IMG/VR virus record: IMGVR_UViG_3300036715_003254
Location: 74,482 to 138,481 of that record
DNA length: 64,000 nucleotides
Strand: one strand, 5' to 3'
Source: a virus
A program made the translations under genes and the position numbers. Within the stretch, counting starts at the first letter, position 1. Each line of letters opens with the position of its first letter. The notes under the pieces are model-generated. The model was not told the origin of the DNA. It searched no databases and saw nothing but the letters and a program-made list of their open reading frames with translations. Shown piece by piece: positions 6,315 to 57,617 of the stretch.

Positions 6315-6423
6315 TTATAATTAGTCAATAGTCAAAACAGAAAATTATCAAATAATTATTGATAATTTAATGTGCTTATATCACCGTCCTAAAGGACGGT
6401 GTTTTACGCACAAAATGGATAAA
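6315..6423 (-). mobile_element. Isolated IS200/IS605-type left end preceded by TTTAT
   Basis: Minus strand TTTAT-CCATTTTGTGCGTAAAACACCGTCCTTTAGGACGGTGATATAAGCAC (subterminal hairpin); the adjoining sequence matches 27260-27345 and 23420-23449. Confidence 0.6.
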
Positions 6424-6480
6424 TAATCTCACACTCTGCTTTCTTTTTCTATAAGTCCAAGATCACTATGTCCGTAGGTA

Positions 6481-6792: not shown

Positions 6793-6805
6793 TTTATTTT
6801 CCTTT

Positions 6806-7818: not shown

Positions 7819-7851
7819 TTGTTTCTCCTAAGGGTTTTATTGTTTATCAAA

Positions 7852-9276: not shown

Positions 9277-9300
9277 TTTATTTCCTTCCTCAAAAATTTT

Positions 9301-9357
9301 TCGCGTCGCGACTTGGTATGTCACATTCCGTGAGGAATTTTACGCGATATATTTATT
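9301..9357 (-). promoter_or_regulatory. Late promoter plus conserved structured 5' leader, copy B
   Basis: TCGCGT/ACGCGA closing stem, ATTCC/GGAAT and GTGAC/GTCGC inner helices; core shared with copy A. Confidence 0.6.
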
Positions 9358-9484
9358 ATACTATAATTGAGTTTAAAGATTTATCAATAAATAAATTCGG
9401 CAAAGACCCCAACTAAGACTTGGGCGCAGAACTTGTCATTCTGCTTAAAACTTTGACCCTTGACAATTATAAGGAAATATAAAA

Positions 9485-13164: not shown

Positions 13165-14253
13165 TTAAGACTTATAGCTTTTTCTTCCTTTTACCCAACC
13201 TTTAGTTACTTCTTCTGGTAATAATGTTTTACATATTTTAAGCTTATCATTATGATACCAACTTTTTCCTAGATTGGTTTTCATTTTTTCGGGATCCATA
13301 TTCACAATCCTGCCTCTTCTAAACCCTTTATTCAAAAATTCTTCTATTCTGTCTTTCTCTACCTGAAAACTATCTACACCATTTGTCATCCAAACAGTAC
13401 CTAAATTATTTTGTGTCTTCCCTTTAACCCAGCCATCATTTAAATACTCTTCTAACTCTTCTTGCTTAATGGATATACTTTCTCTACCCTTCTTTATCCA
13501 AATACGCCCAAAAGCACCACTATTTTCTCCTCTTCTTTTCTCAGCATATTTTTCTCTTTCTTCAGGAGTTAAACTTTGATAATATTTCTTTACTGCAGCT
13601 GCTCTCTTTTCTATGGTTTCTTTAGAAGGTTTATAACCTTTCAAACTTTCTGAAGTTTTTCTACCTTTTCTCTGATAACCAGTTAAACCGTCTTCGCCTA
13701 CTTCAGACAGCTTTTCTTTTGTTTTTTGGATTATGAGTTCTTGAACAGACATTCCATTTTCTAAAATAGTTTCCTTCCTAGTTTTATAACCACGTCTACC
13801 ACTATCCTGAGCATTAGTCAATCCATTCTCTAGAACTGTTTCCTTTCTAGTTTTCGCCGCCTTTAAAGCCGCCTTTTTATATTCACTCAAACCATTTTCA
13901 TCAACAGTTTTAAATTTTTCGAAAATCTCTCTGTTAACTTTCTCAAAAAGTCTCGAATTAGTAATCTCTCCCCATCCTCTTTTTTCTGATGTGTGTTTTA
14001 GCTGCCAAAGAGCATAAACCATTTTTCCACCAAAAATTCTAGCTAGCATTATATGAGCTATAAAATGAGCTCTGTAAGATAGATTAACACCATTCCAAGG
14101 ATATAAATTAAGATTTTCATATTCAGGAAATAACGCTCTTAGTAGTATATGATGTTTATGAGTATGAGTTTTACTTAATGTATTAAACTTCTTACAAAAG
14201 TTTATATACCTTTTCGAAAGGTTAGTGTTTGGTAGGAAGCTTTCTATGTTCAT
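13165..14253 (-). CDS. Free-standing HNH homing endonuclease
   Basis: HKHHIL...NLSYRAHFIAH HNH domain, ENGL repeats, W(M/I)xNG...GWxKG C-terminal repeats. Confidence 0.8.
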   Translation of the reverse strand: MNIESFLPNTNLSKRYINFCKKFNTLSKTHTHKHHILLRALFPEYENLNLYPWNGVNLSYRAHFIAHIMLARIFGGKMVYALWQLKHTSEKRGWGEITNSRLFEKVNREIFEKFKTVDENGLSEYKKAALKAAKTRKETVLENGLTNAQDSGRRGYKTRKETILENGMSVQELIIQKTKEKLSEVGEDGLTGYQRKGRKTSESLKGYKPSKETIEKRAAAVKKYYQSLTPEEREKYAEKRRGENSGAFGRIWIKKGRESISIKQEELEEYLNDGWVKGKTQNNLGTVWMTNGVDSFQVEKDRIEEFLNKGFRRGRIVNMDPEKMKTNLGKSWYHNDKLKICKTLLPEEVTKGWVKGRKSYKS

Positions 14254-16132: not shown

Positions 16133-17407
16133 TCATATTACCTGCTTAACTTGTGAGTAATCTACTGTAAATCTACAAAAGAAGTCAGAATCATTTAGAC
16201 CTGTTCCTTCGTCAAAAGGATTTCTTCCGAAAGCATATCTATAAAATACAACAAGGTTTTCTTCGCCTGTTTCAGGATTAGTTGCTGTAGTAATAGTAAG
16301 ATTATAAGGGGAGAAAATCAAACCTGAATCAGTTTTAAATTTACCAGCATTAAATCCAACAATAACTTCTTCATCATCTTGATAGTTACTTTTTATAATA
16401 TCGATATATCCGAGAGCTTTACCTATATAATCTGTGTCTGTAACTACATTTTCTTGTTCAGTTTTACCACCTTTTGATAGGTCAAGAGCACCAGAAGCTG
16501 AAAGAGCAGCAACAGTTCTATGTGAAGCAATAGCGAAGCCAACAATATTTCTTCCTGTTCTTTTAGAAATATCAGCAAGCTCTTTTACTATTTTGGTGTA
16601 TATAATCGTGTAAGCGTAAATCAAATCTGTAGAACCATCTCTATCACTTACAACAAGATCTCCGCCTTCTCTTGCTATTGCTCTAAGATAATCAAACAAC
16701 TCTTGCTCAACTTCGTTGTTTATTTCTTCTGCTAGAGTTTTAGCTATAATCTCTACAGCATTTTCCATTCCAAATTGAGCTTGAATATCTTTTATAACTT
16801 CTCTAGTTAAAACGGATTTAATCTTTCTAGTTTGAGTAGTAAGAGTAAGAGCTCTAATAGAATGATTAATTTCTCTAGGAACAAGTTTTTCACCATCAGA
16901 AGTAAGGAATGGACCAGAATAAGTATTGAATACCTTTTTAATAGCTATTCTTGAAGAGAAAACATCTTTTACTGTTTCTTTGTTATTTCCGTCAGTAATA
17001 CTATCTCCAACAGCAAATGTTTCTCCTGGAACATCAAACTCAAGAAGAACTTTATTCAACTCAACAAATCTTACTGTTGCTATTTCAGGATTATTACCAT
17101 CTTTTTTTATTCTAGCTCCAACAGTCCAAGGACAAGTAGAGGTCAATTTGATGACTTTAGTGTTATTCTCTTTAGCAGTTTTAGAATTTCCTGCGTAGTT
17201 CGCCGTTTGAACATAAACTTTGCCTATTGGGCCATCAAGAGGAACTATTGATGAAATTTTGTCAAGTATAGAATTGTTATAGGTATATTGAATTACCTTA
17301 TCAAGTAGTTGTTCTTGAAAGGAAATATCTCCAACTGATGATTCGCTCAGCTGTATAGCCTTCTTTGAATTCTCTAAGACCTTACTGGCTGTTATTTCAT
17401 TATTCAT
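16133..17407 (-). CDS. Major-capsid-fold paralog (gp23/gp24-like)
   Basis: VPLDGPIG, TRKIKSVLTREVIKDIQAQFG, LAEEINNEVEQE, GLIFSPY, RYAFGRNPF. Confidence 0.8.
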   Translation of the reverse strand: MNNEITASKVLENSKKAIQLSESSVGDISFQEQLLDKVIQYTYNNSILDKISSIVPLDGPIGKVYVQTANYAGNSKTAKENNTKVIKLTSTCPWTVGARIKKDGNNPEIATVRFVELNKVLLEFDVPGETFAVGDSITDGNNKETVKDVFSSRIAIKKVFNTYSGPFLTSDGEKLVPREINHSIRALTLTTQTRKIKSVLTREVIKDIQAQFGMENAVEIIAKTLAEEINNEVEQELFDYLRAIAREGGDLVVSDRDGSTDLIYAYTIIYTKIVKELADISKRTGRNIVGFAIASHRTVAALSASGALDLSKGGKTEQENVVTDTDYIGKALGYIDIIKSNYQDDEEVIVGFNAGKFKTDSGLIFSPYNLTITTATNPETGEENLVVFYRYAFGRNPFDEGTGLNDSDFFCRFTVDYSQVKQVI

Positions 17408-17506
17408 TAAACAGAACCTCTTTTTTATTTTGTACAATTCAAATCTTTACTATTTATTTGTAAGATAATCATAAACAGATATAATTATCTATAGTCCAAA
17501 CTACTT

Positions 17507-20053: not shown

Positions 20054-21034
20054 CTAGAACCTTAGTGTTACTTGAGCAGGAAGACCTTCTTCTATGTTTT
20101 CATTGATTAGTATTTTAATCTGTTCCGGTTTAAAATTTCCATTAACCAACATCTCATTAAAATCTTTGTATTCTATTTCTTTTGGCCACATAAAGGCTTT
20201 AAATCCTTCATCCACATATTTCCTATAAGACTGTTTCGCTTTCATATCGAAATTATAATTGTCGAGACAAATAACATAGTCTCTCTTGTACTTAGAAAGA
20301 ATTTCTGAAGAAGAGCCTAGAACAGCCATACTATTATCTTGACCTGTAGAAAGAGCGTCGAATATTGACTCACAAACAAAAACTTCCTTTGTTTTGTCAG
20401 TTTGAAATATATTCCAAGCCTTCGGCAGGCTTTCGTCAAATAATTTGGTAATAAATTGTTTTCCTACTAAACTCCTACCTTGAAACCCAAACCAAGTACC
20501 GTCTTCTCTTAAAAGAGGAAAAATGATAAAGTTGTCAAGATACATATCAAACACATTTAAATTTTTCGCTTGATATACTTGAATATTTCTTCGCTTTATT
20601 TCAGACAAGACTTTTCTTTTTTCAAGGTATTCTATCGCTTCACTATCAATTTCTTGAAATGGATTTTCAAAATCATCAATAACTTCTTCTTCAGGCTCTT
20701 TTTCTATTATAGGCGGCAAATCTTCAAAAACTAAATCATCAAGACTTTCTCCAGTCAATGATTTAAAACTGTTTTGTCTTAACTCATTTCTATAAGAGTC
20801 AAAAAATTCTGGACAATTTTCCTTGAAGAACTTATAAAAGCTTGAACTATAATCACAGTTAAAACAGTGTACATAGTCCTTTTTGTTGTTTTCTATAAAC
20901 CAAAATCTTCTTTTTCTTTTATTCTTCTTAGAATCGCCGCAAATAGGACATCTTATATTATATTTGTCACCAACTTTCTTAGCGTCTAGATAAGCGTATT
21001 TTATGAATTTTTCTGCTAATGGAGTCATAGTCAT
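20054..21034 (-). CDS. gp61: DNA primase (gp61-like)
   Basis: RCPICGDS..HCFNC zinc finger; FQGR; ESIFDALS TOPRIM; KDFNEM. Confidence 0.93.
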   Translation of the reverse strand: MTMTPLAEKFIKYAYLDAKKVGDKYNIRCPICGDSKKNKRKRRFWFIENNKKDYVHCFNCDYSSSFYKFFKENCPEFFDSYRNELRQNSFKSLTGESLDDLVFEDLPPIIEKEPEEEVIDDFENPFQEIDSEAIEYLEKRKVLSEIKRRNIQVYQAKNLNVFDMYLDNFIIFPLLREDGTWFGFQGRSLVGKQFITKLFDESLPKAWNIFQTDKTKEVFVCESIFDALSTGQDNSMAVLGSSSEILSKYKRDYVICLDNYNFDMKAKQSYRKYVDEGFKAFMWPKEIEYKDFNEMLVNGNFKPEQIKILINENIEEGLPAQVTLRF

Positions 21035-21099
21035 AAATCCTTTAAGAGGAATTATACCTAAAATAAGTTTAAAAGGAGAAAGGAGAGTTTAAACTCTCC

Positions 21100-22158
21100 T
21101 TAAAAATCGTCTAGAGTAGTATCCTCTTTTTCGACAGGTTTAACGTAGAATGTGCTCAAATTCTCGAACATTTCGTTCAAGTTATGGGCTAGGAAGTAAT
21201 CCATCATACCTTTTGAGTCGTAGTGTGCTTCTGCTTTAGAATATTCTTCGAGTATGGCTTTCTGAATATCTTCAGGAATATAATCAAAGTCTATGAGGAC
21301 TTTGTTCCTTTCAAAATTCGATTTACAAATTTCCGGAAGTTTCTCAAAGTTTTCTTCAAAATTTTCGAGAAACTTATTTACTCCTACTTCACCAAACATA
21401 GCTTTCTTATAGATAGGCTTGTCGAGAAATTCAGTTTGATATTTCTCAATCAACATACCTGAGATTTGAAGCTTAAAGAACTTGTCTACTTCGGTGACGA
21501 AAATATTTTCTCGTCTAAGAAAAGAAATGAAATCCTTATGGAATTCTGATTCGGCTTTTATACTAGGAACATTATCGCCAGAATCGCCAAGAAGAATGTG
21601 GAATAGTTTAAAATTCCTTACTTCTGGCTTAGTCATTTTAACGAATTCTTTCTTTATCGGATCGAAAAGACTTACATTATCGTATTCAAGCACTTGTTTA
21701 TAGTCTTTATCAGAAGACACGACTAGCACTTTCCTTTTCTTAGAAAGATTCTTAGCCAAAACTCCACAAACATCATCAGCTTCAGCTCTATCGACATAAA
21801 CAACCTTTACTGGAAAACTTGTTTTTAAAGCTTCCAGAACATCGTTTACTACAGCGAAAAATTCGTTGAAGTCTATATCAGAATTTTCTCTTCCGGCGGC
21901 TCTATGTGCTTTATATTCTTTATAAAAATCTTTTCGCCAATTATTTTTAGCGTCGCAAGCTATTACTATTTCGTCATTCCACTCGTTAAATTTGTTCGAG
22001 AAAATATATTTCAAGTTGTTGAACAAAAGATGTCTGAAGAAGTCTTCATAGTCTTTTGTTCTAAACTTTTTAGTAGTTTTATCGACTTTTAGTTTGAGTT
22101 GAAATATGGAAACATAAAGCAATCTATGAGCTAAATGGCTAAAGTCCATTAAGACCAT
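21100..22158 (-). CDS. rnh: RNase H / 5'-3' exonuclease
   Basis: WRKDFYKEYKAHR, EADD, SSDKDYKQ, GDSGDNVP. Confidence 0.93.
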   Translation of the reverse strand: MVLMDFSHLAHRLLYVSIFQLKLKVDKTTKKFRTKDYEDFFRHLLFNNLKYIFSNKFNEWNDEIVIACDAKNNWRKDFYKEYKAHRAAGRENSDIDFNEFFAVVNDVLEALKTSFPVKVVYVDRAEADDVCGVLAKNLSKKRKVLVVSSDKDYKQVLEYDNVSLFDPIKKEFVKMTKPEVRNFKLFHILLGDSGDNVPSIKAESEFHKDFISFLRRENIFVTEVDKFFKLQISGMLIEKYQTEFLDKPIYKKAMFGEVGVNKFLENFEENFEKLPEICKSNFERNKVLIDFDYIPEDIQKAILEEYSKAEAHYDSKGMMDYFLAHNLNEMFENLSTFYVKPVEKEDTTLDDF

Positions 22159-22344: not shown

Positions 22345-23271
22345 TTAACCTATTAGATCGTCAAGAAAATCTAAATCGTCATTGACGCTTTTTGTTTCCG
22401 GAGCTTCCTCGACTTTCTTTTTTGTAGGTTTTTCTATAGTAGCTTGTTTTTTAACTCCAATCTCTTTAGGTTTTTCATCTTCATCAAAAGGTACATCATT
22501 ATTTTTAATCTCAGCTCCCTTTACAGTTTTTTGACCTGTTTCAGCAAAAGTCAAAAGGGCTTTCAACTCATTATATGGTTTAAAGTGAGCTGGAGAAATA
22601 AACTCATCCAGTTTGTAACAATTTTTGTTTATAAATTCTACCGCAGCTTCAGTAGATTTGAAAACAGCACTTGCATCAAGAATTGTTGTATCATCATAAT
22701 TAAAGAAGTTATTAGCTTTCTTAATTTGAAGACTAATTGAAGATCCATTCGCTGTAGGATCGAAAAGTTGTTTTGGTTTTACGCCTACTTCTCTCATAGC
22801 TTCTGTTGGATTCATAGCTGCTATGAATTTGTCCATAAGTTTGGTGCCGAATTCCCAGAGGAACACTTTACCGTTGTTTTCCGGACAGCCTGGATCTTTT
22901 ACAACAAGTATGTTAGCTATATACTTGATTTTTCTTGAGTATAGTTTCGCTTTTTCTTGATTACCACTGTTCCATAGTTCTTGCCATTTTTCAGAAGCTG
23001 GACACGGAAGACCTATTGTTTCAGGACTGTCTTGAATGTAGTAAAAGTCTTTACCGTTTCTTGTAAATTTTATTGAGTGATGGAATATTTTGACAAAAGG
23101 TTTAGCGTCTGGACCTGCTGAGTCTGGTAGTAATCTAATTACAGCTGCTCCTGTACCACTTTCATCTTTAGAAAGCTTCCAAAACCTTGAGTCTTTGAAG
23201 TCTTTTTTCTCTCCTGGAAGAGCGTCTTTTTGTAGATTTTGTTGAAGTGTTTCCCACGAAAATTCAAACAT
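22345..23271 (-). CDS. gp32: Single-stranded DNA-binding protein
   Basis: DSRFWKL..D..G.GAAVIRLLP, ANILVVKDP..PENNGKVF, acidic tail; start MFEF at 23271. Confidence 0.95.
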   Translation of the reverse strand: MFEFSWETLQQNLQKDALPGEKKDFKDSRFWKLSKDESGTGAAVIRLLPDSAGPDAKPFVKIFHHSIKFTRNGKDFYYIQDSPETIGLPCPASEKWQELWNSGNQEKAKLYSRKIKYIANILVVKDPGCPENNGKVFLWEFGTKLMDKFIAAMNPTEAMREVGVKPKQLFDPTANGSSISLQIKKANNFFNYDDTTILDASAVFKSTEAAVEFINKNCYKLDEFISPAHFKPYNELKALLTFAETGQKTVKGAEIKNNDVPFDEDEKPKEIGVKKQATIEKPTKKKVEEAPETKSVNDDLDFLDDLIG

Positions 23272-23295
23272 TTTTAATTCCTTTTTAAACGATTT

Positions 23296-23449
23296 GTGAA
23301 CCGCTCCTTCGTAAAAGAAGAGCTTCCTAACTAACAACTTCCAACGAAGTTGAGCACGAAAGGCTTTGTGTTTATAGTCCACAAGGCTAGTTCCTAGCCC
23401 AAACGACTATGATTATATTATATAATCAGTCGATAGCAAAAACAGATAG
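23296..23449 (-). ncRNA. Stand-alone TnpB omega-RNA mini-element #1 in the gp32 leader
   Basis: Closely similar to the 3' end and right end of both tnpB copies, ends TTCAC; own promoter TTGCTA-16-TATAAT; preceded by TTTAT (23450-23454). Confidence 0.8.
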
Positions 23450-23488
23450 ATAAAAACGAACGCCAAATTCTTTAGACTGATTTATTTA

Positions 23489-24190
23489 TCAGTTTTGTTT
23501 TGGTTTCTCAGCTACCAGAACTTCAAAAGTTTCTAGAGTATTTGAAACAAATTTAAAAATCACTTTACCTGACGCATTTCTATGTATAGAAACTCTGTAT
23601 GTTCCTAGAGGAATTTTTTTAAAGTTATCATTGCTCAAAGAAAGCATAACATCTTCTTTCGACTCGCCGTCACATTTAATAGAAAAAGTATTTCCGAGAG
23701 TTTCTGAATCAAGAGAAATTGTTATTTCATCATCAGACGATGAGATTGTGATATTTTCTAGATCTTTAAGAACGCTTGACGCCTTTCTTAGTTTACCCAT
23801 ATCTTCGTCGCTAAGAGTAAACGAAATAATCGGTTCAATAGAATCAACCTTGTCAAATATACTAAAGTTTAGTCTATATTTGTCTAGTAGGTCTAGGTCT
23901 GATGTGTAATATGTGATTTGTGTTGACCTATCAGAAAGAATAAGTTTTGAATCTTCTTGTTTAATTTCCGGATCTTCAAGAAGTTTCACTACTGATAGAA
24001 ATTCGGAAAGTTTTCCGAGCAAACCGAATTCTTCAAACTCTTCAGAGTCGTATCTAGAAAGATCGATTTTGGCCATAATGGTTGAATCTATATCTTTAAT
24101 CCCGAGTATAGGATAAGAAACAACTAGGCTTGAAGAAATATCTTGTAATTTTGACAGGATTGTCAACGAGTTTTTGTTAAGCATTTTCAT
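23489..24190 (-). CDS. gp45: Sliding clamp
   Basis: Size, EFGL..LSEFLSVVKL and KIPLGTYRVSI motifs, replication context. Confidence 0.8.
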   Translation of the reverse strand: MKMLNKNSLTILSKLQDISSSLVVSYPILGIKDIDSTIMAKIDLSRYDSEEFEEFGLLGKLSEFLSVVKLLEDPEIKQEDSKLILSDRSTQITYYTSDLDLLDKYRLNFSIFDKVDSIEPIISFTLSDEDMGKLRKASSVLKDLENITISSSDDEITISLDSETLGNTFSIKCDGESKEDVMLSLSNDNFKKIPLGTYRVSIHRNASGKVIFKFVSNTLETFEVLVAEKPKQN

Positions 24191-25669: not shown

Positions 25670-25790
25670 GTGAACTGCCTACTCCTTAAAGGAGTCGGCT
25701 TCCTAACTAACAGCTTCCAGCGAAGCTGAAACACGAAAGGCTTTGCGTTTATATAAGTCCGCAAGGTTGGTTCCCAACCCAAACGACTTC
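25670..25790 (-). ncRNA. omega-RNA scaffold / right end of tnpB copy 1
   Basis: Hairpin series overlapping the tnpB 3' end, ending GGCAGTTCAC. Confidence 0.75.
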
Positions 25791-27112
25791 ATACCTCTAT
25801 ACAATATATGTACTGAAGCTTGATGGTCAGGATTAGTCTGATGACCACAAGCTGTACATATAAATTTGTCTTGTTTAGGTCTATTGTTCTTATCAATATT
25901 ACCACAGTTTAAACAAGTCATAGAAGTATAGGAAGGATCTACTTTTACAAACAATTTGCCATTAAGCGACTGCTTGTATTCAAGCATAGATATAAACTGA
26001 TAGAATGAAGCTCTTAAAATTGATTTATTTAAACCTGCTTTTTGTCTTACATTTTTTCCGTGCTCGACTTCATTTCCTTTAGCAGATTTAGTCATTTGCT
26101 TTAGTTTAAGGTCTTCAACTACTATCAAATCAAATTTGTTTGTTAATCTGGAGGAGATTTGATGATATAGATCCGTTCTTTTATTGATAATTCTTTTTTG
26201 TAGTTTATTTAATTGTTGTTGTGTTTTATTATAGTTTCTCCCTAGTTTGGTTTTTGATTTTTTGTTTTTTAGAATTCTTCTAGACTGCTTTCGCAAAAGA
26301 AGTTTGATTCTTTTGTTATTCAGCATTGCTTTACGATTAGCAGAACCGTTGTTTATTAGATGTCCTGATTCAACCGATACTAAGTTTGGTATCGATTCAA
26401 AGAGAAAATCTACATCGTTTGAAACTGCAAAGTTATAAACATTCATATCTATACCTATACAATTTTCTTCATTCAAATTGTCGATAGATACAGGTTCTAT
26501 TTCTTTTTCAAAAGAAATTCCTATGCTAGCGTAATAACCAGTCGCATCTCTAGATATAACAACAGAAGTTAACTTATATTCTTTTGGAAGTTCTCTATGA
26601 TATCTTAGTTTTATGTTTTGCTTCATCAATTTCAAAATAGCAGTTCTTTTATCTGTTTCTTTAATAGATACTGCTTGATTGTTCCACACAAATGATTGTC
26701 TTACATCTTTACTTGATTTAAACTTTGGAAATCCGATTGATAGCGCTTTTGCTTTTTCTTTTGGAGTTTTTGCGTTTTGTAAAGCTTTATTTCTTTCATT
26801 AACAACATTTTTTGAGAAAGCTCGTTTAGTCGCCTTAAGAAAATTTATTCTAGCTTGTTGAATAACAACGGAAGAAAAAGGAATATTTCTAAGTTTTAAA
26901 GCTCTTTTTATAACTCTGTCGTAAGACGAATCCTTCCTGTATTTTCTATCTGCTTTCTCTAGCTTTCTATTTCTTTCTTGTTCTTTTTGCCATAGATTAA
27001 GACAGATGTTGTAGGCTTGATTATAAACGAACATTTGATGGTCGAGAAGCTTCTTTTGTTCTTCTGTAGGATAGATCTGATATTTATAACCTAGATTTAC
27101 AGTTTTGTTCAT
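25703..27112 (-). CDS. tnpB: RNA-guided endonuclease TnpB (IS200/IS605 family), no tnpA
   Basis: KYQIYPTEEQ HTH, GIDMN (RuvC I), VVEDL (RuvC II), YTSMTCLNCG..CTACG zinc ribbon, NPDHQA (RuvC III). Confidence 0.95.
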   Translation of the reverse strand: MNKTVNLGYKYQIYPTEEQKKLLDHQMFVYNQAYNICLNLWQKEQERNRKLEKADRKYRKDSSYDRVIKRALKLRNIPFSSVVIQQARINFLKATKRAFSKNVVNERNKALQNAKTPKEKAKALSIGFPKFKSSKDVRQSFVWNNQAVSIKETDKRTAILKLMKQNIKLRYHRELPKEYKLTSVVISRDATGYYASIGISFEKEIEPVSIDNLNEENCIGIDMNVYNFAVSNDVDFLFESIPNLVSVESGHLINNGSANRKAMLNNKRIKLLLRKQSRRILKNKKSKTKLGRNYNKTQQQLNKLQKRIINKRTDLYHQISSRLTNKFDLIVVEDLKLKQMTKSAKGNEVEHGKNVRQKAGLNKSILRASFYQFISMLEYKQSLNGKLFVKVDPSYTSMTCLNCGNIDKNNRPKQDKFICTACGHQTNPDHQASVHILYRGMKSFGLGTNLADLYKRKAFRVSASLEAVS

Positions 27113-27698: not shown

Positions 27699-28601
27699 CT
27701 ATTTTTCGTAATTTTCGATAATCCATTCAAGAGATTTGTATTTGAAACCTGAAGGAACAGTGTCAAAATATCCAGTATAAATTTTGTTAATTATTTCGCC
27801 TTCAGCGATCTCGCTATAAATCGGATCTTTTACAGAGACGCCTTTAGCTTCGAAATGCGCTCTTAACATCTTATAGAGTCTTTCTATCGTCACAATATTT
27901 TCCGGAGCAATAATATCGTATGTTTGCCCCCAATACTCGTGTCGGAAATCATCTTCGACATCTTTAATAGCATATTCGATGCCGAAGATGAAATCTTCAA
28001 CAGAAGTGAACGATCTAAGAGGAGAGAAATTTTGAGACGAAATATGAATTTCACAAACATCATTATTCATCATCTTGTTGTAGAAGTTTGCAAATACGCC
28101 GCTTTCTGGATTTTGATATTTTCCAACTATATTGAAGAGTCTGAACACTATCGCAGGACTGTAAAATGTGTTAAAAATAACAGACTCGGTATATAGTTTA
28201 TTTAGAGCGTAAAAATCTCTTTCGCTAGTAGAAAGAGGTCTTGTATCGTCAAAATGAAGCCCGTCGTAAACTTCAGATGTGCTCGTGAATATGACAGGAA
28301 CTTTAAGTTCTCTTAACTCTGGAATAAGAATTTCTATTAAAAGAGCATTGTTTTTTATGAATGATTCTGGATTATTTTGAATGTATTTCACGCCGACAGA
28401 ACTTGCGAGATTAATAACCATCTCAGCGCCGAATGTTTTGAGATCTATCGGTTTTGTTAAATCATATTTAAAAAATCTGTCTTTATGAGATTCTAAAATA
28501 GGCTCTTCTCTATCAATTAGAACCAACTCGTGTTTGTCTTCTAACGCTTCAACAAGATGTGTTCCTAAAAATCCGCTACTTCCTAAAATCATTATTCGCA
28601 T
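27699..28601 (-). CDS. NAD-dependent epimerase/dehydratase
   Basis: GSSGFLG Rossmann motif, STSEVY, YxxxK, RLFNIVG. Confidence 0.9.
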   Translation of the reverse strand: MRIMILGSSGFLGTHLVEALEDKHELVLIDREEPILESHKDRFFKYDLTKPIDLKTFGAEMVINLASSVGVKYIQNNPESFIKNNALLIEILIPELRELKVPVIFTSTSEVYDGLHFDDTRPLSTSERDFYALNKLYTESVIFNTFYSPAIVFRLFNIVGKYQNPESGVFANFYNKMMNNDVCEIHISSQNFSPLRSFTSVEDFIFGIEYAIKDVEDDFRHEYWGQTYDIIAPENIVTIERLYKMLRAHFEAKGVSVKDPIYSEIAEGEIINKIYTGYFDTVPSGFKYKSLEWIIENYEK

Positions 28602-28742
28602 ATAATTTCCTTTTATTCTTTTGATTAATAGATATTTATACAAATATTTCTATAACGAATATTATTACTGATTTTAGTTTAAAACTACTTTAATTGAATT
28701 CTGTTACACAAAAATTCTAGATTTCAATCCGTATTCTTCAAT

Positions 28743-30365
28743 TTACTGTATATTCACTTCTTTCTCAAAAAGGTCGAATTCTTGTTCTTGATATTCGGCT
28801 AGTCTTTCAAAAAAGTGTTTCAAACAATAATTTTGTTTCTTACCGTAACCACAGTCATCGACAATATCCCAAACTCCGACTTTGTCTTTACTATCGTGTA
28901 GCCTTAGCATACGTCCTATACTTTGAAGAAGTCTTATAGAAGATTTTGTACTTTCTCCTAGTATCAGGTGTCTTAGCTTTTTTATATTTACGCCTGTACT
29001 CATAGTAGCGTAAGAAGCGAATAGTATCGCATTATCGTACTGTTCAAGAATTCTTCTGATATACTCTCTCTGTTTTTCGTCAACAGCACCGGTTACAACG
29101 AAAATTTGAAGTTCTTCAAGAGATTTAACTTTTCCATATACTTCTTTGTATTGGCTTGCGTATTCAGTTCCTGATAGAAGTCTTTTAATTTTAGCCTCAT
29201 CTACTTGATCATTTACATAAATCAGGTCTTTCTTCGATATTATAGCCGAAAGAAGCTCATTCTTAGTCAATTTAAAAATGAATTCAGCAGACTCTCCGAC
29301 TCTTTGTTTAATCGTTTCCTTTACAAGAGGAACTCCGTGATTTTCTACTTTAGAAAAAAGACAAAGAGTATTTCCCTGTTTAGAAATTTTATCAGCAAGC
29401 TTAACTATAAATTTCTTTCGGTTTGAGTATTCATTCAAAAATTGATTTTCTTTTTGATATTCCATTTTTAAAACGGCTTTACAAACATCGTCAGGATATT
29501 TCAAAAATAGAGCATAAATTTCTACAGGAGTAGCAAGACCCATCTCAATCAGTTTCTTAGTAGTCAAATACCTCTTACTTTGTCCTAAAGCGCCCTCAAG
29601 ATACATTTTGCTTATATACTCTTCCGGAAGTGTTCCTGTCAAACCTATTCTGTAAGGTGTATTACTAGCAGATATTACTACGTCTTTCAAACTTTGGGCA
29701 GCACAACCGTGAGCTTCATCTACTAAAATACAATGAATGTCTTCAAACAGCTCTTTTGATTTATAGATTGACTGCCAAGTTGTTATAGTGATAGGCTTCT
29801 CGAAATGTTTTTCTTTTCCAGCACAAATTTGGTGAACATAATTTTCCAAATCTTTAAAGCCGTAATCTCTAAAATCAGAATACATTTGATTCACAAGCAT
29901 AACATTTGGAACAATAAGAACTGTCTTCTTATTCCAAGCCATCATAAACCTACTAATAATGTAGATTACCAAAGATTTACCTGAGCCTGTTGGTAGAAGA
30001 ACGGTCTTTCTTCTCTCATTTAAAGTTTCAAGAACGGCGTCGATTTGATAATCGAACGGTGTCATAGGTATATTAAGAGTCTCTATAAATGAAAGCAATT
30101 TTTCTCTAGTAATAATCGGCTCTGGAAGTGAAATTTTTAGATCGAATTTTTCCGCTAGCCTCTGTTCTAAACCTTTAGGGAATATGATATTTTGATTTTC
30201 ATCTACCATATAGAGTTTTTCTCTACCATCCCATAGTCTTGCTCTAACTCTAGGATGAAACCTGTAATTAGGTATATATGGAGAAAGAAAGTCCATTATG
30301 GCTACTTTCTTGTCCATATCATCTATTACTACACGGCTATAACTTTCATTTACATATTCTATCAA
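28743..30365 (-). CDS. uvsW: DNA helicase UvsW
   Basis: PTGSGKS, TTWQS, DEAH, GLTGT, QSIGRMLR. Confidence 0.95.
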   Translation of the reverse strand: MIEYVNESYSRVVIDDMDKKVAIMDFLSPYIPNYRFHPRVRARLWDGREKLYMVDENQNIIFPKGLEQRLAEKFDLKISLPEPIITREKLLSFIETLNIPMTPFDYQIDAVLETLNERRKTVLLPTGSGKSLVIYIISRFMMAWNKKTVLIVPNVMLVNQMYSDFRDYGFKDLENYVHQICAGKEKHFEKPITITTWQSIYKSKELFEDIHCILVDEAHGCAAQSLKDVVISASNTPYRIGLTGTLPEEYISKMYLEGALGQSKRYLTTKKLIEMGLATPVEIYALFLKYPDDVCKAVLKMEYQKENQFLNEYSNRKKFIVKLADKISKQGNTLCLFSKVENHGVPLVKETIKQRVGESAEFIFKLTKNELLSAIISKKDLIYVNDQVDEAKIKRLLSGTEYASQYKEVYGKVKSLEELQIFVVTGAVDEKQREYIRRILEQYDNAILFASYATMSTGVNIKKLRHLILGESTKSSIRLLQSIGRMLRLHDSKDKVGVWDIVDDCGYGKKQNYCLKHFFERLAEYQEQEFDLFEKEVNIQ

Positions 30366-41057: not shown

Positions 41058-41178
41058 GTGAACCGCTCTGCCGTAAACGGCGGTGCTTCCTAACTAGCAG
41101 CTTCCAACGAAGCTGAAACACGAAAGGCTTTGTGTTTATATAAGTCCACAAGGTTAGTTCCTAGCCCAAACGACTTCA
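41058..41178 (-). ncRNA. omega-RNA scaffold / right end of tnpB copy 2
   Basis: Homologous hairpins ending GCGGTTCAC. Confidence 0.75.
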
Positions 41179-42499
41179 TACCTCTATATAGTATATGTAC
41201 TGAAGCTTGATGATCAGGATTTGTTTCGTGTCCGCAAGCTGTACATTTAAATTTGTCTTGTTTTGGTCTGTTGTTCTTATCAATATTACCACAGTTTAAA
41301 CAAGTCATAGAAGTATATGCAGGATCTACTTTCACAAACAATTTGCCATTAAGCGATTGCTTATATTCAAGCATAGAAGTAAACTGATAGAATGAAGCAC
41401 CTAAAATAGCTTTGTTTAAACCTGCTTTTTGTCTAACATTTTTTCCGTGTTTGACTTCATTTCCTTTAGCAGATTTAGTCATATTTTTCAATTTAAGGTC
41501 TTCAACTACTATCAAATCAAATTTGTTTGTTAATCTTGAAGAGATTTGGTGGTATAGATCCATTTTCTTATTAGTTATTTTCTTATGTAGTTTATTTAAT
41601 TGTTGTTGTGTTTTATTATAGTTTCTCCCTAATTTGGATTTTGTCTTTTTGCTTTTTAGGATTCTTCTTGATTGCTTTCGTTTAAGACGTCTAATTATGT
41701 CTTTTTCCGTCAGTATTTTACGATTAGAAGAACCATTGTTAATGAAATTTCCTGATTCAACCGATACAAGATTAGATATCGGTTCAAAGAGAAAATCTAT
41801 TTCACTTGATACTGCAAAGTTATATACATTCATATCTATACCTATACAATTGTCTTCTTTTAAACTGTTAATAGATATCTGTTCCATTTCCTTTTCAAAA
41901 GAAATTCCTACACTAGCGTAATAGCCTGTTGCATCTCTAGAAATTACAACAGAAGTAAGTTTATATTCTTTCGGCAGTTCTCTATGATATCTTAGTTTGA
42001 TATTTTGCTTCATCAATTTCAAAATAGCATTTCTTTTATCTGTTTCTTTAATGCTCACATTTTGATTACTCCATACAGATGATTGTCTTACATCTTTACT
42101 TGATTTAAACTTTGGAAAACCTATCGATAACGCTTTTGCTTTTTCTTTTGGAGTTATTGCTTTAGAAAGAGCTTTATTTCTTTCATCCACAACATATTTC
42201 GAAAATGCTCTTTTGACAGCTTTAAGGAAATTTATTCTAGCTTGTTGAATGACAACAGAAGAAAATGGTATTTTTCTAAGTTTTAAAGCTCTTTTTATAA
42301 CTCTGTCGTAAGACGAATCTTTCCTGTATTTTCTTTGGTCTTTATCAAGCTTTTTGTTTCTTTCTTGTTCTTTTTGCCATAGATTAAGACAGATGTTATA
42401 AGATTGGTTATAAACGAACATTTGGTGATCAAGAACTTTCTTTTGTTCTTCAGTAGGATACAACCGATATTTATAACCTAGAAATACAGTTTTGTTCAT
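41090..42499 (-). CDS. tnpB: RNA-guided endonuclease TnpB, copy 2, no tnpA
   Basis: Same length (469 aa) and motifs as copy 1; D/E/D RuvC residues present. Confidence 0.95.
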   Translation of the reverse strand: MNKTVFLGYKYRLYPTEEQKKVLDHQMFVYNQSYNICLNLWQKEQERNKKLDKDQRKYRKDSSYDRVIKRALKLRKIPFSSVVIQQARINFLKAVKRAFSKYVVDERNKALSKAITPKEKAKALSIGFPKFKSSKDVRQSSVWSNQNVSIKETDKRNAILKLMKQNIKLRYHRELPKEYKLTSVVISRDATGYYASVGISFEKEMEQISINSLKEDNCIGIDMNVYNFAVSSEIDFLFEPISNLVSVESGNFINNGSSNRKILTEKDIIRRLKRKQSRRILKSKKTKSKLGRNYNKTQQQLNKLHKKITNKKMDLYHQISSRLTNKFDLIVVEDLKLKNMTKSAKGNEVKHGKNVRQKAGLNKAILGASFYQFTSMLEYKQSLNGKLFVKVDPAYTSMTCLNCGNIDKNNRPKQDKFKCTACGHETNPDHQASVHILYRGMKSFGLGTNLVDLYKHKAFRVSASLEAAS

Positions 42500-53390: not shown

Positions 53391-55172
53391 TTATTTATTT
53401 CCTAGAATTCCTTTCAGCTCTTCAAACATTCCCCAGACTTGTTTAGGTGTCATAGACTTAAATGCTTCAAAGTCATTATCTCTTATAGCTTGTACAACTT
53501 TTGTAGCCGAAATATCGTCATCAGTTCTTTTTATTTCAATTATTTTGATATGTTGTTTTTCAGCAACAGGTCTATAATCATTCACTCTGTCTGTTCCACA
53601 GTATAGCTGAGTAATCTGCCAAGGAAGAAGTTTCGCTATATTTTGTATATTGCCTGTAGGAACTTCAATTATTGTTATATTTGGAAAACATTTTCTCAAC
53701 ATAGAAAGTCTTGTTATTTGCGGAATTTCTGAGTTTCTTCCGGATACAAGACATACAGCAGCATTATCAGATTCTTGAATCATATTTTCTATAATTCTGT
53801 AGTGCGCCAAAGTAAGAATTCTCATTTTACCTATAAAGACTGAGTTCTTCATATTTGATGTCATATCAGAAAGAAGAATTTTTCCTGTAGTGAAAAGGTC
53901 ATCTTGTTTTTGTTGTACGGTTTTATTTTCGTTTTGACCATCGAACTCTGTAGTCTTGTAAACTATTTTAGAGTATTCTTTTATTTTTTGTTGTGGACTT
54001 TCAGCCTTTATGTTATTGATAATTTTAAGGGCTTGTTGTTTTACTTTTTCCCAGTAAAGGTTTTCAGCATCTCTATCCAGAGCGCCGTATTTCTTTTTAA
54101 TCTCAAGTCTAGTCGCTTTATCGTGTTGGTCTGATTGAAGAATTTTGTAGTAATCGTCGCCAATCTTAATTACTACACCTTCAGTTTTTCCGCCTAGCTC
54201 TGAATCAATAGAAAGCAGAATATCACAAATTTGATCGAATATCTCATCTTTATGTTCAAAATGAAGCTCTTTTTGTTTTCTAACAAAATAAGATGCAACT
54301 GCTTGAGAAGTACAACCAGATATTAGATTGGAGTAAGAGTCAAGCGTTCCTCTAAATAACACTGGCGGCAAATTGAATCTAAATATTTTCGCATAATATT
54401 CATTGTCTTCATTTTCTAGAGGTCCAACTGATGTAGTTACCTTTAGTCCAGAAACTCTTATAGAATTTATTTTAGCATATCCAATTAGATATAAGGTATG
54501 TTTAAACTTCTCATATTGTCTCGTTAGAGTAGCTTTCTTCATAATGAATTCACAGAAGAATTCTGTATTTCTTTTTACTCTCGATAGGTTTGGATGTGCC
54601 AATCTCAATTGGTCCCAAACAAACTTATATTGCGCAAAACCTGATGATTTTTGTACTTGTTCGTCAGATATACCTTCTATCTCGCCAGGAGTAATAATAG
54701 AATTTTTATACGCTACTATCCAGTTCTTTTCAGGATGATCTTTATCATACGGAGTGTCGGTACGAATTATTGAAAGCTTTGTTCCGTCCAATTTTTCTTG
54801 AATTTCTACCTTTTTTGTCAGGAAGTCATTTTGAACAGATTTTGGAGCTTTTCTAATGTCTTTTATTGAAATGTCTAATCTTGTTGTAACAGGAGCGCCT
54901 TCATTAATACCTTTTTCTTGACTTACTTTTTTATCAATATATTCTTTCATCTTTTTAAAAAGGTCTGTATCTATATGTGCCAAATCATAAAATCTTGATA
55001 AGTTATTATTTTCAATATAAGCAGACAGTTTAGAGGCTACTTCTTCCATTTCTTCTTCAGAAAATATTTCCTCTCCAGAAACAATTCTGATTGTAGAACC
55101 GTCTATTTGCAGGTCATAGTTGTATCCCTCTGTTCCTTTAAAGGGATAAAGATTTTTTAATATATGCATCAC
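53391..55172 (-). CDS. Ligase-type nucleotidyltransferase fused to a cytidylyltransferase-like domain
   Basis: EKLDG (motif I), EGVVIK (IV), YYKI (V); C-terminal GKMRILTLAH, GTDR, ISATKV. Confidence 0.75.
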   Translation of the reverse strand: MMHILKNLYPFKGTEGYNYDLQIDGSTIRIVSGEEIFSEEEMEEVASKLSAYIENNNLSRFYDLAHIDTDLFKKMKEYIDKKVSQEKGINEGAPVTTRLDISIKDIRKAPKSVQNDFLTKKVEIQEKLDGTKLSIIRTDTPYDKDHPEKNWIVAYKNSIITPGEIEGISDEQVQKSSGFAQYKFVWDQLRLAHPNLSRVKRNTEFFCEFIMKKATLTRQYEKFKHTLYLIGYAKINSIRVSGLKVTTSVGPLENEDNEYYAKIFRFNLPPVLFRGTLDSYSNLISGCTSQAVASYFVRKQKELHFEHKDEIFDQICDILLSIDSELGGKTEGVVIKIGDDYYKILQSDQHDKATRLEIKKKYGALDRDAENLYWEKVKQQALKIINNIKAESPQQKIKEYSKIVYKTTEFDGQNENKTVQQKQDDLFTTGKILLSDMTSNMKNSVFIGKMRILTLAHYRIIENMIQESDNAAVCLVSGRNSEIPQITRLSMLRKCFPNITIIEVPTGNIQNIAKLLPWQITQLYCGTDRVNDYRPVAEKQHIKIIEIKRTDDDISATKVVQAIRDNDFEAFKSMTPKQVWGMFEELKGILGNK

Positions 55173-55648
55173 TCTATCTCCAGATAATCAAATGAAATTG
55201 TTATTCCTACGCTTAATTGGTCATCATTTTCGGTTGAAGAAAACGAAACAGACTCTATACTCTTTATTTTGCATCCATAAAGAACAACTCTCATTATAAC
55301 ATCTTCGCTGTCAGGAGACATAACAAGGAGAGTAGAATTTTTATTATCGTTTTGTAGTTCGCCGTTATTCGGATCGTTTCTATAAAATTGAATCTTCTTG
55401 ACTATTTGTTTCCAAATTGAGAAATTTTCATCGATTAACATCTTTATAGAAAGATCTTCGTAATTTATTACGCCGCCTTGAATTTGGGCAGCATATCTTC
55501 CCTTTAAAGGTTTAGAGTGTTCGATTGATAGTCCAGGAAGATTAACCTCCTGGATGTAATACTCTATTTCTTCATTGTCACTAAACATAGTTGTAACGAA
55601 CACAAGGCTCGATTTTATTCCAAGGGATCTTCTTGTATTCGTCGCCAT
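55169..55648 (-). CDS. Tail tube terminator (gp3/gp19-like)
   Basis: QEVNLPGLS, YEDLSIKMLIDENF, F...S.F pattern. Confidence 0.75.
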   Translation of the reverse strand: MATNTRRSLGIKSSLVFVTTMFSDNEEIEYYIQEVNLPGLSIEHSKPLKGRYAAQIQGGVINYEDLSIKMLIDENFSIWKQIVKKIQFYRNDPNNGELQNDNKNSTLLVMSPDSEDVIMRVVLYGCKIKSIESVSFSSTENDDQLSVGITISFDYLEIE

Positions 55649-55654: not shown

Positions 55655-55918
55655 TTACCTACCGAAAGAAGAGCTTACTTTAGCTTTGATTTTTGTTTTT
55701 GCCGGAACTTTAACTTTTTCGCCAGTTTTTGGATTTCTTGCTTCTTTAGCAGACACCAAAACTTTTTCGAATTTTATAAAGCCTGTAAGGTTTACTTCTC
55801 CGTCTTCAGCAAGACCTTCTAGAACAGCTTCTTCAAAAATTTTAACTAGCTCACCAGCTTCTTTTTTAGTAAAACCGTTTTTCTCAGCAATAAGATCGAT
55901 AAATTCAGCTTTTTTCAT
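55655..55918 (-). CDS. hup: HU-like DNA-binding protein
   Basis: MKKAEFIDLIAE...GFIKF...ARNPKTGEKVKVPA. Confidence 0.93.
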   Translation of the reverse strand: MKKAEFIDLIAEKNGFTKKEAGELVKIFEEAVLEGLAEDGEVNLTGFIKFEKVLVSAKEARNPKTGEKVKVPAKTKIKAKVSSSFGR

Positions 55919-56006
55919 ACTTAACCTTTTGTAAATTTTTGACCAAAAAAATGTTTGGTCTATCGGAAAAATCAAAAATAATTTCTCTGATAGACCAAAA
56001 GTAGTT

Positions 56007-56195
56007 CTATCTTCTAGCGGCCATTTGTATAATTTGTTCTTGAAATGTGACAGGTTTCGCATTTTCTGAACTATCAGTTGCGCTCGCTTTTGAAACACTT
56101 TTGTTAGCTTCTGAAATATTTCCGTCGGCTTTTTTATCGCAGCCCGTAATAAAAACAGAGATAAAAACGGAAACAACAAGAAGTTTTTTAATCAT
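56007..56195 (-). CDS. Small lipoprotein with 2 N-glycosylation sequons
   Basis: Lipobox ITGC; DGNIS, EANKS. Confidence 0.8.
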   Translation of the reverse strand: MIKKLLVVSVFISVFITGCDKKADGNISEANKSVSKASATDSSENAKPVTFQEQIIQMAARR

Positions 56196-56336
56196 AGAAA
56201 CACCTCTTTTCAATGTAATTTAACTAAAATATTTATTGCTGTTGTATGAAAACTCCGCCCTAAAGGACGGAGATAAAAGCTCAAAGAAGAAAGGATTGAT
56301 TTGATTGACAAAAGAATCCCTTTTCTTTATCTTTAC

Positions 56337-56495
56337 TTACTTAGTAGAATTTGCTTCAGAAACATTTCCGTCAACAGTTTTATTTGCTTCAGAAACGCTT
56401 TTGTTAGCATCAGAAGCATTTTTATCTACAGTTTTACCGCAACCCGACATAAACGCAGCGATCAAAACGGAAACGACAAGAAATTTTTTCATCAT
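56337..56495 (-). CDS. Small lipoprotein (52 aa) with 5 N-glycosylation sequons, not in ORF track
   Basis: MMKKFLVVSVLIAAFMSGC-GKTVDKNASDANKSVSEANKTVDGNVSEANSTK*; TATAAATA at 56511-56518. Confidence 0.85.
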   Translation of the reverse strand: MMKKFLVVSVLIAAFMSGCGKTVDKNASDANKSVSEANKTVDGNVSEANSTK

Positions 56496-56540
56496 AGAAA
56501 CCCTTTATTGTATTTATAGGCATCAAGCCAAACATATTTA

Positions 56541-57617
56541 TCACTCATCAAAACTTAAATCTTCATCAACGATTTGTGAATGTTTAAATGAAAACTCTTC
56601 TTCAAGAAACTTTATAAAGCCTGGATACTCTTTAAAAATGGGCTTCCAAACTTCAGCGACATAAATATCTTTTTCTCTGTATTTCTTTTCACCTTCAGAT
56701 GTAGTAACAATATACCATCCAGGAGAGCCTTTTATAATCGGTTTTTTACCTTCAGTGATTGTTTCGGAATAATCCAAAGCGTGTTCAAGAAGACCATAAT
56801 ATGGGTCGAGACCACCATCGTATTTAATTCTGTATTTGAATTTACTGTTTTCCTTAGAAAATCTTGATTTTCTCACAACGCAGGATATTATAGCTCCTGT
56901 AAGTTCTTCAGACTCTTTGTCTTTAGCTTTTGACATACCCATAATAATTACAGAAGAAGCGAAATAAATCCCTCTACCTCCTGGAATTGAAAGAGGATCG
57001 CCGAAACCTCCAACATTGTCATAAACGTGATTTACTATAAACACAGTACATCTTAGAGACTGTAGAAGTCTAGCAAATGAATTTTTCTTTTTAGAAATTG
57101 TCATATCTGCGACATCTTTTCCGCTTGTAGCGTCTGCTACTGTTTTTGCTGTAATCAAACCTCCGAAAGAGTCTAATACAATTACAACATCTTTTCTTTC
57201 TTCTTTTGTGAGAGGCTCAAGCAAATTCATAATAAATTTTTGTATTTCTTCTATTGAAGACTCTTGACAGACAATAAGCTCGTCTATGTTTATACCCATT
57301 TTAGCCGCCGTTTCGGCATCGTAAGCGAATTCAGAGTCAATAAGAACGGCAACTTTACCTTTTCTTTGAGCATTTTTAAGTATTTTCATACCTATAATAG
57401 ACTTCCCTAGAGAAGAAGGAGCAGCAATTGTTGTTACTCTTCCGACAGGAATTCCTTTTGCTACACTACCGGAACAAGCTAGATTAAGAGAGACGCAATC
57501 GGTAGAAATAAAGTCTGTTACTACTGTTTCATCTTCTTCAATTAAGAATTCTTTAATTTTAGAATTCTTGGTCATTTTTTCAAATAGAGTGTTTTTGACG
57601 ATTTTTTCTTTAGCCAT
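56541..57617 (-). CDS. uvsX: RecA-like recombinase
   Basis: APSSLGKS, DSEFA, LDSFG, VNHVY, GGRG. Confidence 0.93.
   Translation of the reverse strand: MAKEKIVKNTLFEKMTKNSKIKEFLIEEDETVVTDFISTDCVSLNLACSGSVAKGIPVGRVTTIAAPSSLGKSIIGMKILKNAQRKGKVAVLIDSEFAYDAETAAKMGINIDELIVCQESSIEEIQKFIMNLLEPLTKEERKDVVIVLDSFGGLITAKTVADATSGKDVADMTISKKKNSFARLLQSLRCTVFIVNHVYDNVGGFGDPLSIPGGRGIYFASSVIIMGMSKAKDKESEELTGAIISCVVRKSRFSKENSKFKYRIKYDGGLDPYYGLLEHALDYSETITEGKKPIIKGSPGWYIVTTSEGEKKYREKDIYVAEVWKPIFKEYPGFIKFLEEEFSFKHSQIVDEDLSFDE

Follow-up and report, generated by a model that had tools for sequence, protein, structure and literature searches.

The window analysed here is the final 64 kb of the 138,481-bp IMG/VR virus record IMGVR_UViG_3300036715_003254, which represents an uncultured, T4-like phage (CheckV completeness 94%, G+C 32%), and by "window" we mean this whole stretch of 64,000 nucleotides. 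On its minus strand, between the recombinase gene uvsX and a gene for an HU-type DNA-binding protein, lie two small open reading frames (ORFs), ORF A and ORF B, that encode predicted lipoproteins, and the mature part of ORF A is nearly all made of back-to-back extended acceptor sites for bacterial N-glycosylation (Table 1). These sites, or sequons, follow the rule of the oligosaccharyltransferase PglB, given as D/E-X-N-X-S/T in the excerpts of PMC4879521. Applied with no Pro at X, the rule finds five sites in ORF A and two in ORF B. An earlier note on this DNA had described the coordinates of both ORFs, the strand and the lipobox MSGC of ORF A, and the five and two sequons, and we found all of these to be correct.

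Table 1. Positions of ORF A, ORF B and the features around them in the window (aa, amino acids; nt, nucleotides)
Feature	Position	Strand	Description
ORF A, 52-aa prolipoprotein	56337..56495	-	signal peptide including lipobox Cys, residues 1-19; mature part 34 aa with the Cys, 33 after it
ORF A sequon array (residues 24-51)	56343..56426	-	DKNAS, DANKS, EANKT, DGNVS, EANST
ORF B, 62-aa prolipoprotein, tandem paralog of ORF A	56007..56195	-	KK; lipobox I-T-G-C at residues 16-19
ORF B sequons DGNIS, EANKS	56097..56126	-	align with ORF A sequons 1 and 2; an unrelated C-terminal half follows
Ribosome-binding site AAAGGG of ORF A	56501..56506	-	AAAGGA/AAGGAG-type words 7-12 fold enriched upstream of phage genes
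TATAAATA	56511..56518	-	15 nt before ORF A ATG
GATAAATA	56535..56542	-	39 nt before ORF A ATG; overlaps uvsX stop codon; aligns with the ORF B motif
AATAAATA	56230..56237	-	34 nt before ORF B ATG; commonest motif form and distance in the phage
Intrinsic terminator after ORF A	56253..56272	-	8-bp stem with 6 G-C pairs, then T run
Terminator hairpin after ORF B	55954..55999	-	-23.5 kcal/mol, z = -6.67, 0/200 shuffles fold as well; then U run
uvsX/RecA-like recombinase gene	56541..57617	-	conserved gene upstream of the insert
HU-type DNA-binding protein gene	55655..55915	-	Pfam PF00216, E = 2.9e-23; third gene of the accessory insert; no counterpart at the L001 locus
Tail-tube-like conserved gene	55169..55648	-	phrog_45, E = 2.1e-15; downstream of the insert; homolog directly after uvsX in L001

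Both N-termini have the features of a lipoprotein signal: the n-region is basic, the h-region hydrophobic, and the Cys of the lipobox falls within ~15-25 residues, the pattern being detected with a regular expression and not with a trained predictor. In ORF A a KK n-region and an 11-residue hydrophobic core lead to M-S-G-C at residues 16-19 (Cys19), and the acceptor sites of both products are predicted from these signals to reach the periplasm. The residue that follows the lipid-bearing Cys is Gly in ORF A and Asp in ORF B (window 56439-56441 and 56136-56141). In Escherichia coli this residue decides between sorting to the inner and to the outer membrane, and by that rule the two products would go to different membranes.

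The 135 phage ORFs of at least 100 aa comprise 41,254 residues with 36 extended sequons, so that the background is 0.087 per 100 aa; the 33 residues that follow the Cys of ORF A have five. The mature ORF A peptide has five Asn and five Asp or Glu residues, and every one of the ten belongs to a sequon, as its N or as its -2 residue, with Asn-to-Asn distances of 5, 7, 6 and 5 residues. When this peptide was shuffled with its composition kept, the mean was 0.18 sequons and none of 200,000 shuffles reached five; the same procedure gave ORF B a mean of 0.07 sequons and P = 0.0013. When phage genomes were scanned for proteins with three sequons in a stretch of 40 residues, ORF A was the only one in this phage; NCTC12673 had none, and CP220 had one, an unrelated protein of 224 aa. 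Part of the ORF A array contains an internal repeat with a period of 21 nt (7 residues; 2.5 copies, 71% matches). The repeat is an old one, and its presence means that the five sites are not fully independent of each other. The Ser residues at +2 are encoded by both TCT and AGC, so that the array is not a fresh duplication of DNA, and this mixed codon use speaks for a motif that has been kept rather than newly copied.

The alignment of the two gene regions starts at the promoter word and extends over the first half of the coding sequence; ORF A and ORF B are therefore tandem paralogs, as the earlier note had proposed. Within the first two sequons, D/E, N and S are kept between the paralogs and the X residues vary. 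Sequon-like words were also found elsewhere in the phage, outside the window (G000 13217-13510, minus strand), where a 97-aa Gly-rich ORF has repeated DGNGS units and no signal peptide, and thus sequon-like words in a protein that is expected to be cytoplasmic.

Expression signals, variation and accessory status

Each of the two ORFs is preceded by a purine-rich ribosome-binding site of the type enriched upstream of this phage's genes. The earlier note had placed a T4-type late promoter before each ORF, and both words lie where it put them, but the one assigned to ORF A, TATAAATA, is not the form that this phage usually has upstream of its genes: there are 18 copies in the phage genome, only 4 of which are within 60 nt upstream of a gene start, and the copy at ORF A is probably too near the start codon to be the main promoter. 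The usual form is ATAAATA, which is enriched 11-fold upstream (27 genes vs 2.4 expected); 28 of its 65 copies are found within 70 nt upstream of a gene start, with A as the preceding base in 19. For ORF A, the word that aligns with the AATAAATA motif of ORF B is GATAAATA, and a -10-like element at a fitting upstream distance, as in T4-type late units, is present for both ORFs. Among the genes preceded by ATAAATA are those for a baseplate wedge protein, gp15, a scaffold protein, a tail protein and a capsid paralog. Judged by this promoter-like motif, late transcription of ORF A and ORF B is plausible; none of the sequencing runs listed as containing the stretch is recorded as RNA.

At 52 and 62 aa both ORFs are short, and neither could be assigned to a family, as might be expected if they were chance open frames in an intergenic spacer that are never expressed. 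We consider this highly improbable, since each ORF has a ribosome-binding site, a promoter-like motif and a terminator of its own, the likeness of the paralogs extends from the promoter to mid-gene, a natural variant with four silent changes keeps the frame and all sequons, and the ORFs were called by the gene callers of two sources. By their ribosome-binding sites, ATAAATA motifs, terminators and silent-change variant, ORF A and ORF B look like real genes. Both proteins are present in public gene-call collections (JGI/IMG and Logan), on 6 contigs each, and a variant of ORF A is labelled "uncharacterized protein YceK" in public gene calls.

The variant of ORF A (P0002) has three replacements, of which F5L falls within the signal peptide, D29E changes a -2 residue but leaves it acidic, and K39V affects an X site, and it retains all five sequons; the variant haplotype, seen in contigs of four runs, has 4 further silent changes in the gene. 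Contigs of two metagenome runs join position 55999/56000 to 56328-56337, skipping 327-337 bases, and part of the population therefore consists of variants with ORF A and without ORF B. In the nearest relative that we found (L001, UvsX 68% identical), no gene lies between uvsX and the tail-tube-like gene. Since uvsX is there followed directly by the tail-tube-like gene, the HU gene, ORF B and ORF A constitute an accessory insert.

The genes around ORF A and ORF B in the window include uvsX, a GapR-like gene, gp15, the terminase gene, the HU gene, the tail-tube-like gene and an RNA-ligase/nucleotidyltransferase fusion. The identity of the phage's UvsX to that of known phages is 33% at best, and a DNA search of the ORF A/B region against 50,697 phage records gave no match. 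A tblastn search of phages with ORF A returned 49 records, none better than E = 1, and a word-based protein search with ORF A returned itself alone. The earlier note had proposed a search for homologs that keep the sequons while diverging elsewhere. One variant, 94% identical, retains all five and paralog B retains two; no further relative was found in these searches.

A look-alike family in Sulfurovaceae and its link to STT3

A profile made from ORF A, its variant and ORF B was searched against 1.84 billion representative proteins (E <= 0.001) and gave 13 matches, of which two were the phage's own, ten were long proteins, and one was a 67-aa lipoprotein (P0128) with six sequons (E = 6.4e-5). 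Three of the ten long proteins were inspected (P0124, P0130 and P0133) and were rejected as relatives; they are tail-fibre-like repeat proteins that share a 10-residue word with the first half of the ORF A array, probably by chance. The match to P0128 spans positions 2-50 and leans on the signal peptide and a low-complexity repetitive motif. The cluster of P0128 also includes a 72-aa form with seven sequons and a 36-aa form with two.

Scanning species-representative genomes with the 72-aa form gave 12 loci, six of which are true relatives, from genomes with Campylobacterales, Sulfurovum or Sulfurovaceae in their titles. The other six were rejected as matches to the signal peptide only (five Pal/OmpA-type lipoproteins without a sequon, and one Acinetobacter protein). 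At five of the six true loci the matched ORF is a lipoprotein of 70-80 aa with 7-9 extended sequons, in which every N-X-S/T has D/E at -2. The match at L068, the sixth locus, is a 146-aa protein in which a five-sequon array is fused to a cytochrome c domain; 5 of its 6 N-X-S/T are extended, and a 76-aa mini-lipoprotein is encoded just upstream of it. All six loci (L065-L070, ~3500-8200 in each) are syntenic, with moaA, queE, queD, the mini-lipoprotein gene with its own terminator, a gene for a sequon-array cytochrome c, and moeA on the opposite strand. The cytochrome c is itself a lipoprotein, tethered at its N-terminus by a further array of sequons. When eight of the mini-lipoproteins were aligned, most columns that did not vary in the mature part were D/E, N and T positions, and the X positions vary. 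Two sequons right after the Cys were also observed in other lipoproteins of Campylobacterota; one of these is thioredoxin-like, and its sequons contain Lys as those of the phage do. We did not find the Sulfurovaceae mini-lipoprotein family described in the literature searched.

The Sulfurovaceae mini-lipoproteins resemble the phage products in the style of their lipoprotein signal peptide and in having a mature part that is nearly all back-to-back sequons, a tandem paralog, and a terminator of their own. They differ in being chromosomal, in having 7-9 Ala/Thr sequons, and in having a cytochrome c neighbour, whereas the phage genes encode five and two Lys/Ser sequons and have no such neighbour, and homology between the two is insecure. 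The moaA-queE-queD/moeA synteny is not shared by the phage genes, which are sited between uvsX and HU. Scanning IMG/VR with the Sulfurovaceae alignment gave two loci that matched by signal peptide only and had no sequons, and thus no viral relative.

One interpretation of this likeness is that the phage took a copy of a host housekeeping mini-lipoprotein, an auxiliary metabolic gene and not an anti-phage or decoy device, which would keep up a function of the periplasm during infection (glycan-tethered electron carriers or hydration, for instance), with glycosylation still occurring. The sole look-alike family that could be detected is chromosomal and syntenic in six genomes, and the profile match to P0128 fits a copied host part as well, but a sample of 401 Campylobacterota genomes yielded no close homolog of ORF A; 94 of them had weak matches, and the loci that were read proved to be mainly signal-peptide matches. 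Also, the X positions of the phage sequons are Lys-rich, with Ser at +2, where the host type has Ala and Thr, and no cytochrome gene adjoins the phage ORFs. On these grounds we regard a copied host part as quite unlikely.

A different possibility, that mature ORF A is a short Lpp-like coiled coil and not a flexible acceptor, is very unlikely. AlphaFold2, given a 3-row alignment, drew mature ORF A as a single low-confidence helix, and heptad a/d positions, read by eye, would be V, A, A, N and A, V, V, A, with a Lys at the C-terminus. The pLDDT of 52-58 over this region is, however, the default for short peptides, there is no match to the LPP family, a Gly and five Asn fall within the 33 residues, and neither the heptad nor the C-terminal Lys is common to ORF B or the Sulfurovaceae proteins.

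The oligosaccharyltransferase family to which dense sequon arrays might be tied was found wherever the look-alike family was found: all six genomes contain STT3 (PF02516) in an open frame of ~692-737 aa, and the Acinetobacter genome does not. Among 301 sampled Campylobacterota genomes, 217 have STT3. A DNA pattern of three sequons a few residues apart was present in 121 of the 301, compared to ~50 for the reversed control, and it was found in 116 of 217 STT3-positive genomes vs 5 of 84 STT3-negative genomes, in a cross-tabulation made by hand that is uncorrected for relatedness, reading frame and composition. In Moraxellaceae, which have larger genomes, the pattern occurred in 21 of 151 and the control in ~35 of 151. 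The contrast is large. Dense sequon arrays thus mark those Campylobacterota that have PglB, and the finding of one in a phage supports a host that has PglB as well.

Host of the phage

Several markers point to Campylobacterota as the host. In tblastn searches the top 15 rows for the capsid protein were all Campylobacter phages (49-51% identity), as were the top 15 rows for the portal protein (42%), and the top rows for the terminase included Campylobacter phages beside Vibrio phages. The window has two genes for TnpB-type transposases (phrog_506; 25703-27112 and 41090-42499, both minus strand), each with ATAAATA before it. The best matches of TnpB among the 401 sampled Campylobacterota genomes, at 62% identity, were on two chromosomes, one of them titled Sulfurospirillum, and a search of 72,556 plasmids gave 53 matching records, 27 of which are from Campylobacter or Helicobacter, with the top 12 rows all Campylobacter (45-46%). 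Four metagenome runs from microbial mats or sediments contain 0.92-1.00 of the words of this DNA, two of them possibly its source, and hydrothermal-vent runs contain 0.05-0.09. Two vent runs that were compared with it have contigs ~90-95% alike, one of which covers part of both ORF A and ORF B. The HU gene offered no host clue, the homologs found being only a 95% variant and an unnamed 57% protein.

Taken together, these markers suggest that the host is very probably a member of the Campylobacterota, and a Sulfurovum- or Sulfurimonas-like host is plausible. Because the host is deduced from markers, its pglB is deduced in the same way. The earlier note's proposal that the arrays are PglB acceptors thus gains indirect support, through the Campylobacter-phage capsid and portal, TnpB, the Sulfurovaceae family and the tracking of arrays with STT3.

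A relative of the phage in the L003 record (G556 9261-9877; UvsX 52%) shares a gene full of near-identical DCNYCTC repeats with the Campylobacter phages CP220 (161811-161929) and CC_R7 (164358-164476), and this gene is another tie of the phage clade to Campylobacter phages. The phage also has a second major-capsid-like gene (window 16133-17437, minus strand; phrog_138, E = 7e-41), which is probably a vertex-protein paralog; the main capsid gene is at G000 28038-29375. A homing endonuclease gene is found elsewhere in the phage (window 13165-14253). The ribonucleotide reductase (RNR) genes, at L062 1443-2903 and 4011-5078 on the minus strand (G000 20443-21903 and 23011-24078), have the look of chimeric or interrupted genes, since a PhoH-like stretch lies within the small subunit and one piece of the large subunit has a helicase-like tail.

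Proposed function and its implications

Natural arrays of this kind have a precedent. In the excerpts of PMC4879521, the N-terminus of Campylobacter jejuni Cj1433c is described as nine tandem KIDLNNT repeats that accepted up to nine N-glycans as a carrier fusion in E. coli with pgl, so that closely spaced natural arrays can, going by that account, be filled. Like ORF A, this repeat ("GlycoTag") is a natural tandem D/E-X-N-X-S/T array, with a spacing of ~7 residues according to the same excerpts. It differs in being a segment of a larger chromosomal protein with perfect KIDLNNT copies (PMC4879521), whereas ORF A is a stand-alone phage lipoprotein with five diverged units. Full-text literature searches, in which supplementary glycoproteome tables were outside the scope, gave no report of a phage-encoded N-glycan acceptor or of sequon-only lipoproteins. 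This agrees with the earlier note, which knew of no described phage system like this one, yet the Cj1433c arrays and the chromosomal Sulfurovaceae design exist.

Llp of T5, Cor of phi80 and T1, and Bor of lambda are small lipobox lipoproteins encoded by moron genes with their own signals, and their presumed place of action is the envelope, where they would protect the cell or block receptors. Protein-protein contact is their mode of action, they are not known to carry glycans, and ORF A and ORF B have no sequence similarity to them. The o-spanins (Rz1, T4 PseT.3) are also small late phage lipoproteins of the outer membrane; they are Pro-rich, paired with an i-spanin, and encoded in or near lysis cassettes. 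We rejected an o-spanin assignment for ORF A and ORF B: the mature parts have no Pro in ORF A and one in ORF B, the neighbours are uvsX, HU and tail-tube-like genes, none of them an i-spanin or endolysin gene, and no spanin PHROG was found.

It is conceivable, although we think it unlikely, that the two products need no sugar for their action and are small phage lipoproteins either of the receptor-masking or superinfection-exclusion type (Llp, Cor) or of the lytic kind, in the size class of entericidins and colicin lysis proteins, and that the sequons are a by-product of a hydrophilic repeat. Their size and lipobox are consistent with this, as are the internal 21-nt repeat, the retention of only two sequons in ORF B with its unrelated C-terminal half, and a host PglB deduced from markers; the nearest named ESM Atlas clusters were entericidin (0.76) and colicin lysis protein (0.75). 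Those Atlas scores are, however, below the threshold for a lead, with none of at least 0.9, the Pfam families Entericidin, Lysis_col and LPP were absent at E <= 1, and PHROGs gave weak N-terminal matches of unknown function. Moreover, each Asn and acidic residue of mature ORF A is in sequon register, which a mere hydrophilic repeat would not need, the same register is invariant in eight Sulfurovaceae proteins, and arrays track STT3.

We therefore favour, as the best explanation and one that is on balance probable, an acceptor array carried by accessory lipoprotein genes, the sites of which would be loaded by the host's PglB. Most likely, ORF A and ORF B are accessory genes ("morons"), each with transcription of its own, in a T4-like phage of PglB-bearing, Sulfurovum-kind Campylobacterota that live in sulfidic mats, sediments or vents. 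The prolipoprotein from each gene would be exported by Sec, Cys19 would be lipidated and the signal peptide removed, leaving a short mature peptide that is an array of D/E-X-N-X-S/T acceptors, five in ORF A and two in ORF B. On the periplasmic side of the inner membrane, the host's PglB would then attach N-glycans to it, and the product would be a lipid-anchored, mucin-like glycopeptide, with five glycans on 33 residues in the case of ORF A. By descent or by convergence, the phage version would copy a design of the Sulfurovaceae, that of sequon-only mini-lipoproteins and of sequon tethers on cytochrome c.

A number of observations weigh against this explanation. The third sequon position is lost in ORF B, which is itself missing from some population variants and so dispensable. 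Sixty uvsX-linked viral loci had no sequon-array gene nearby and only three small lipoproteins with one sequon each, the whole records of 5 relatives and 4 Campylobacter phages contained no ORF A relative or array, and scans of IMG/VR with ORF A (11 pattern matches) and of JGI metagenomes with the A/B alignment (591 pattern matches) had none confirmed. Because no other relative of ORF A was found, conservation of the sequons is judged from one variant and paralog B. The match to P0128 is weak at E = 6.4e-5, and the likeness between it and the phage proteins may be convergence. As for the host, the phage has no tRNA genes and no informative HU homolog, and CRISPR spacers were not searched; STT3 is absent from 84 of the 301 sampled Campylobacterota genomes, the association of arrays with STT3 is the uncorrected hand tabulation described above, and the phage record encodes neither STT3 nor a GT2 glycosyltransferase. 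The timing is also in question, since ATAAATA precedes the homing endonuclease gene, two TnpB genes and a piece of RNR, so that "late" is not certain. Sequons just 5 residues apart may not all be occupied. In the excerpts of PMC6025236, which cite Mills et al. 2016, the PglBs of Nitratiruptor, Sulfurovum lithotrophicum and Deferribacter are given as characterised, with some of these vent-bacterial enzymes stated to differ in sequon recognition.

In the chain that we infer for ORF A and ORF B, from host through export, lipidation, glycosylation and timing to purpose, the last link is the least secure. As the most likely use we favour a late remodelling of the envelope, in which a glycan brush could hide receptors on infected cells and on debris, an effect that Llp and Cor achieve without sugar. 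Lipid-linked oligosaccharide might be drained as a side effect or as an alternative purpose, and mimicry of host mini-lipoproteins would be another alternative. That a late burst of the five-site lipopeptide would serve as a decoy substrate, forming a mucin-like coat that shields receptors or draining the undecaprenyl-linked glycan pool, we put forward only tentatively, as something rather less than an even prospect. The functions of sink, decoy or shield, and superinfection exclusion that the earlier note had offered are likewise conjectural.

If glycosylation were confirmed, ORF A would be a phage product with no evident feature beyond being a multi-site substrate of a host oligosaccharyltransferase, a route to reshaping the cell surface that we have not found in print; were the decoy reading to hold as well, the phage would be the first bacterial virus to hijack protein N-glycosylation by means of a pure acceptor. 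Natural mini-arrays could be compact carriers for glycoconjugate engineering, a use to which, going by the excerpts of PMC4879521, the Cj1433c repeat has already been put, and sequon arrays in phages could serve as a sequence-only marker of PglB in their hosts. If the reading of the bacterial family is also true, the envelopes of Sulfurovum-like cells would contain an unrecognised class of "sequon-only" glycolipopeptides, and PglB-bearing Campylobacterota would build lipid-anchored peptides and protein tethers from back-to-back sequons, which bears on the purpose of general N-glycosylation in bacteria.

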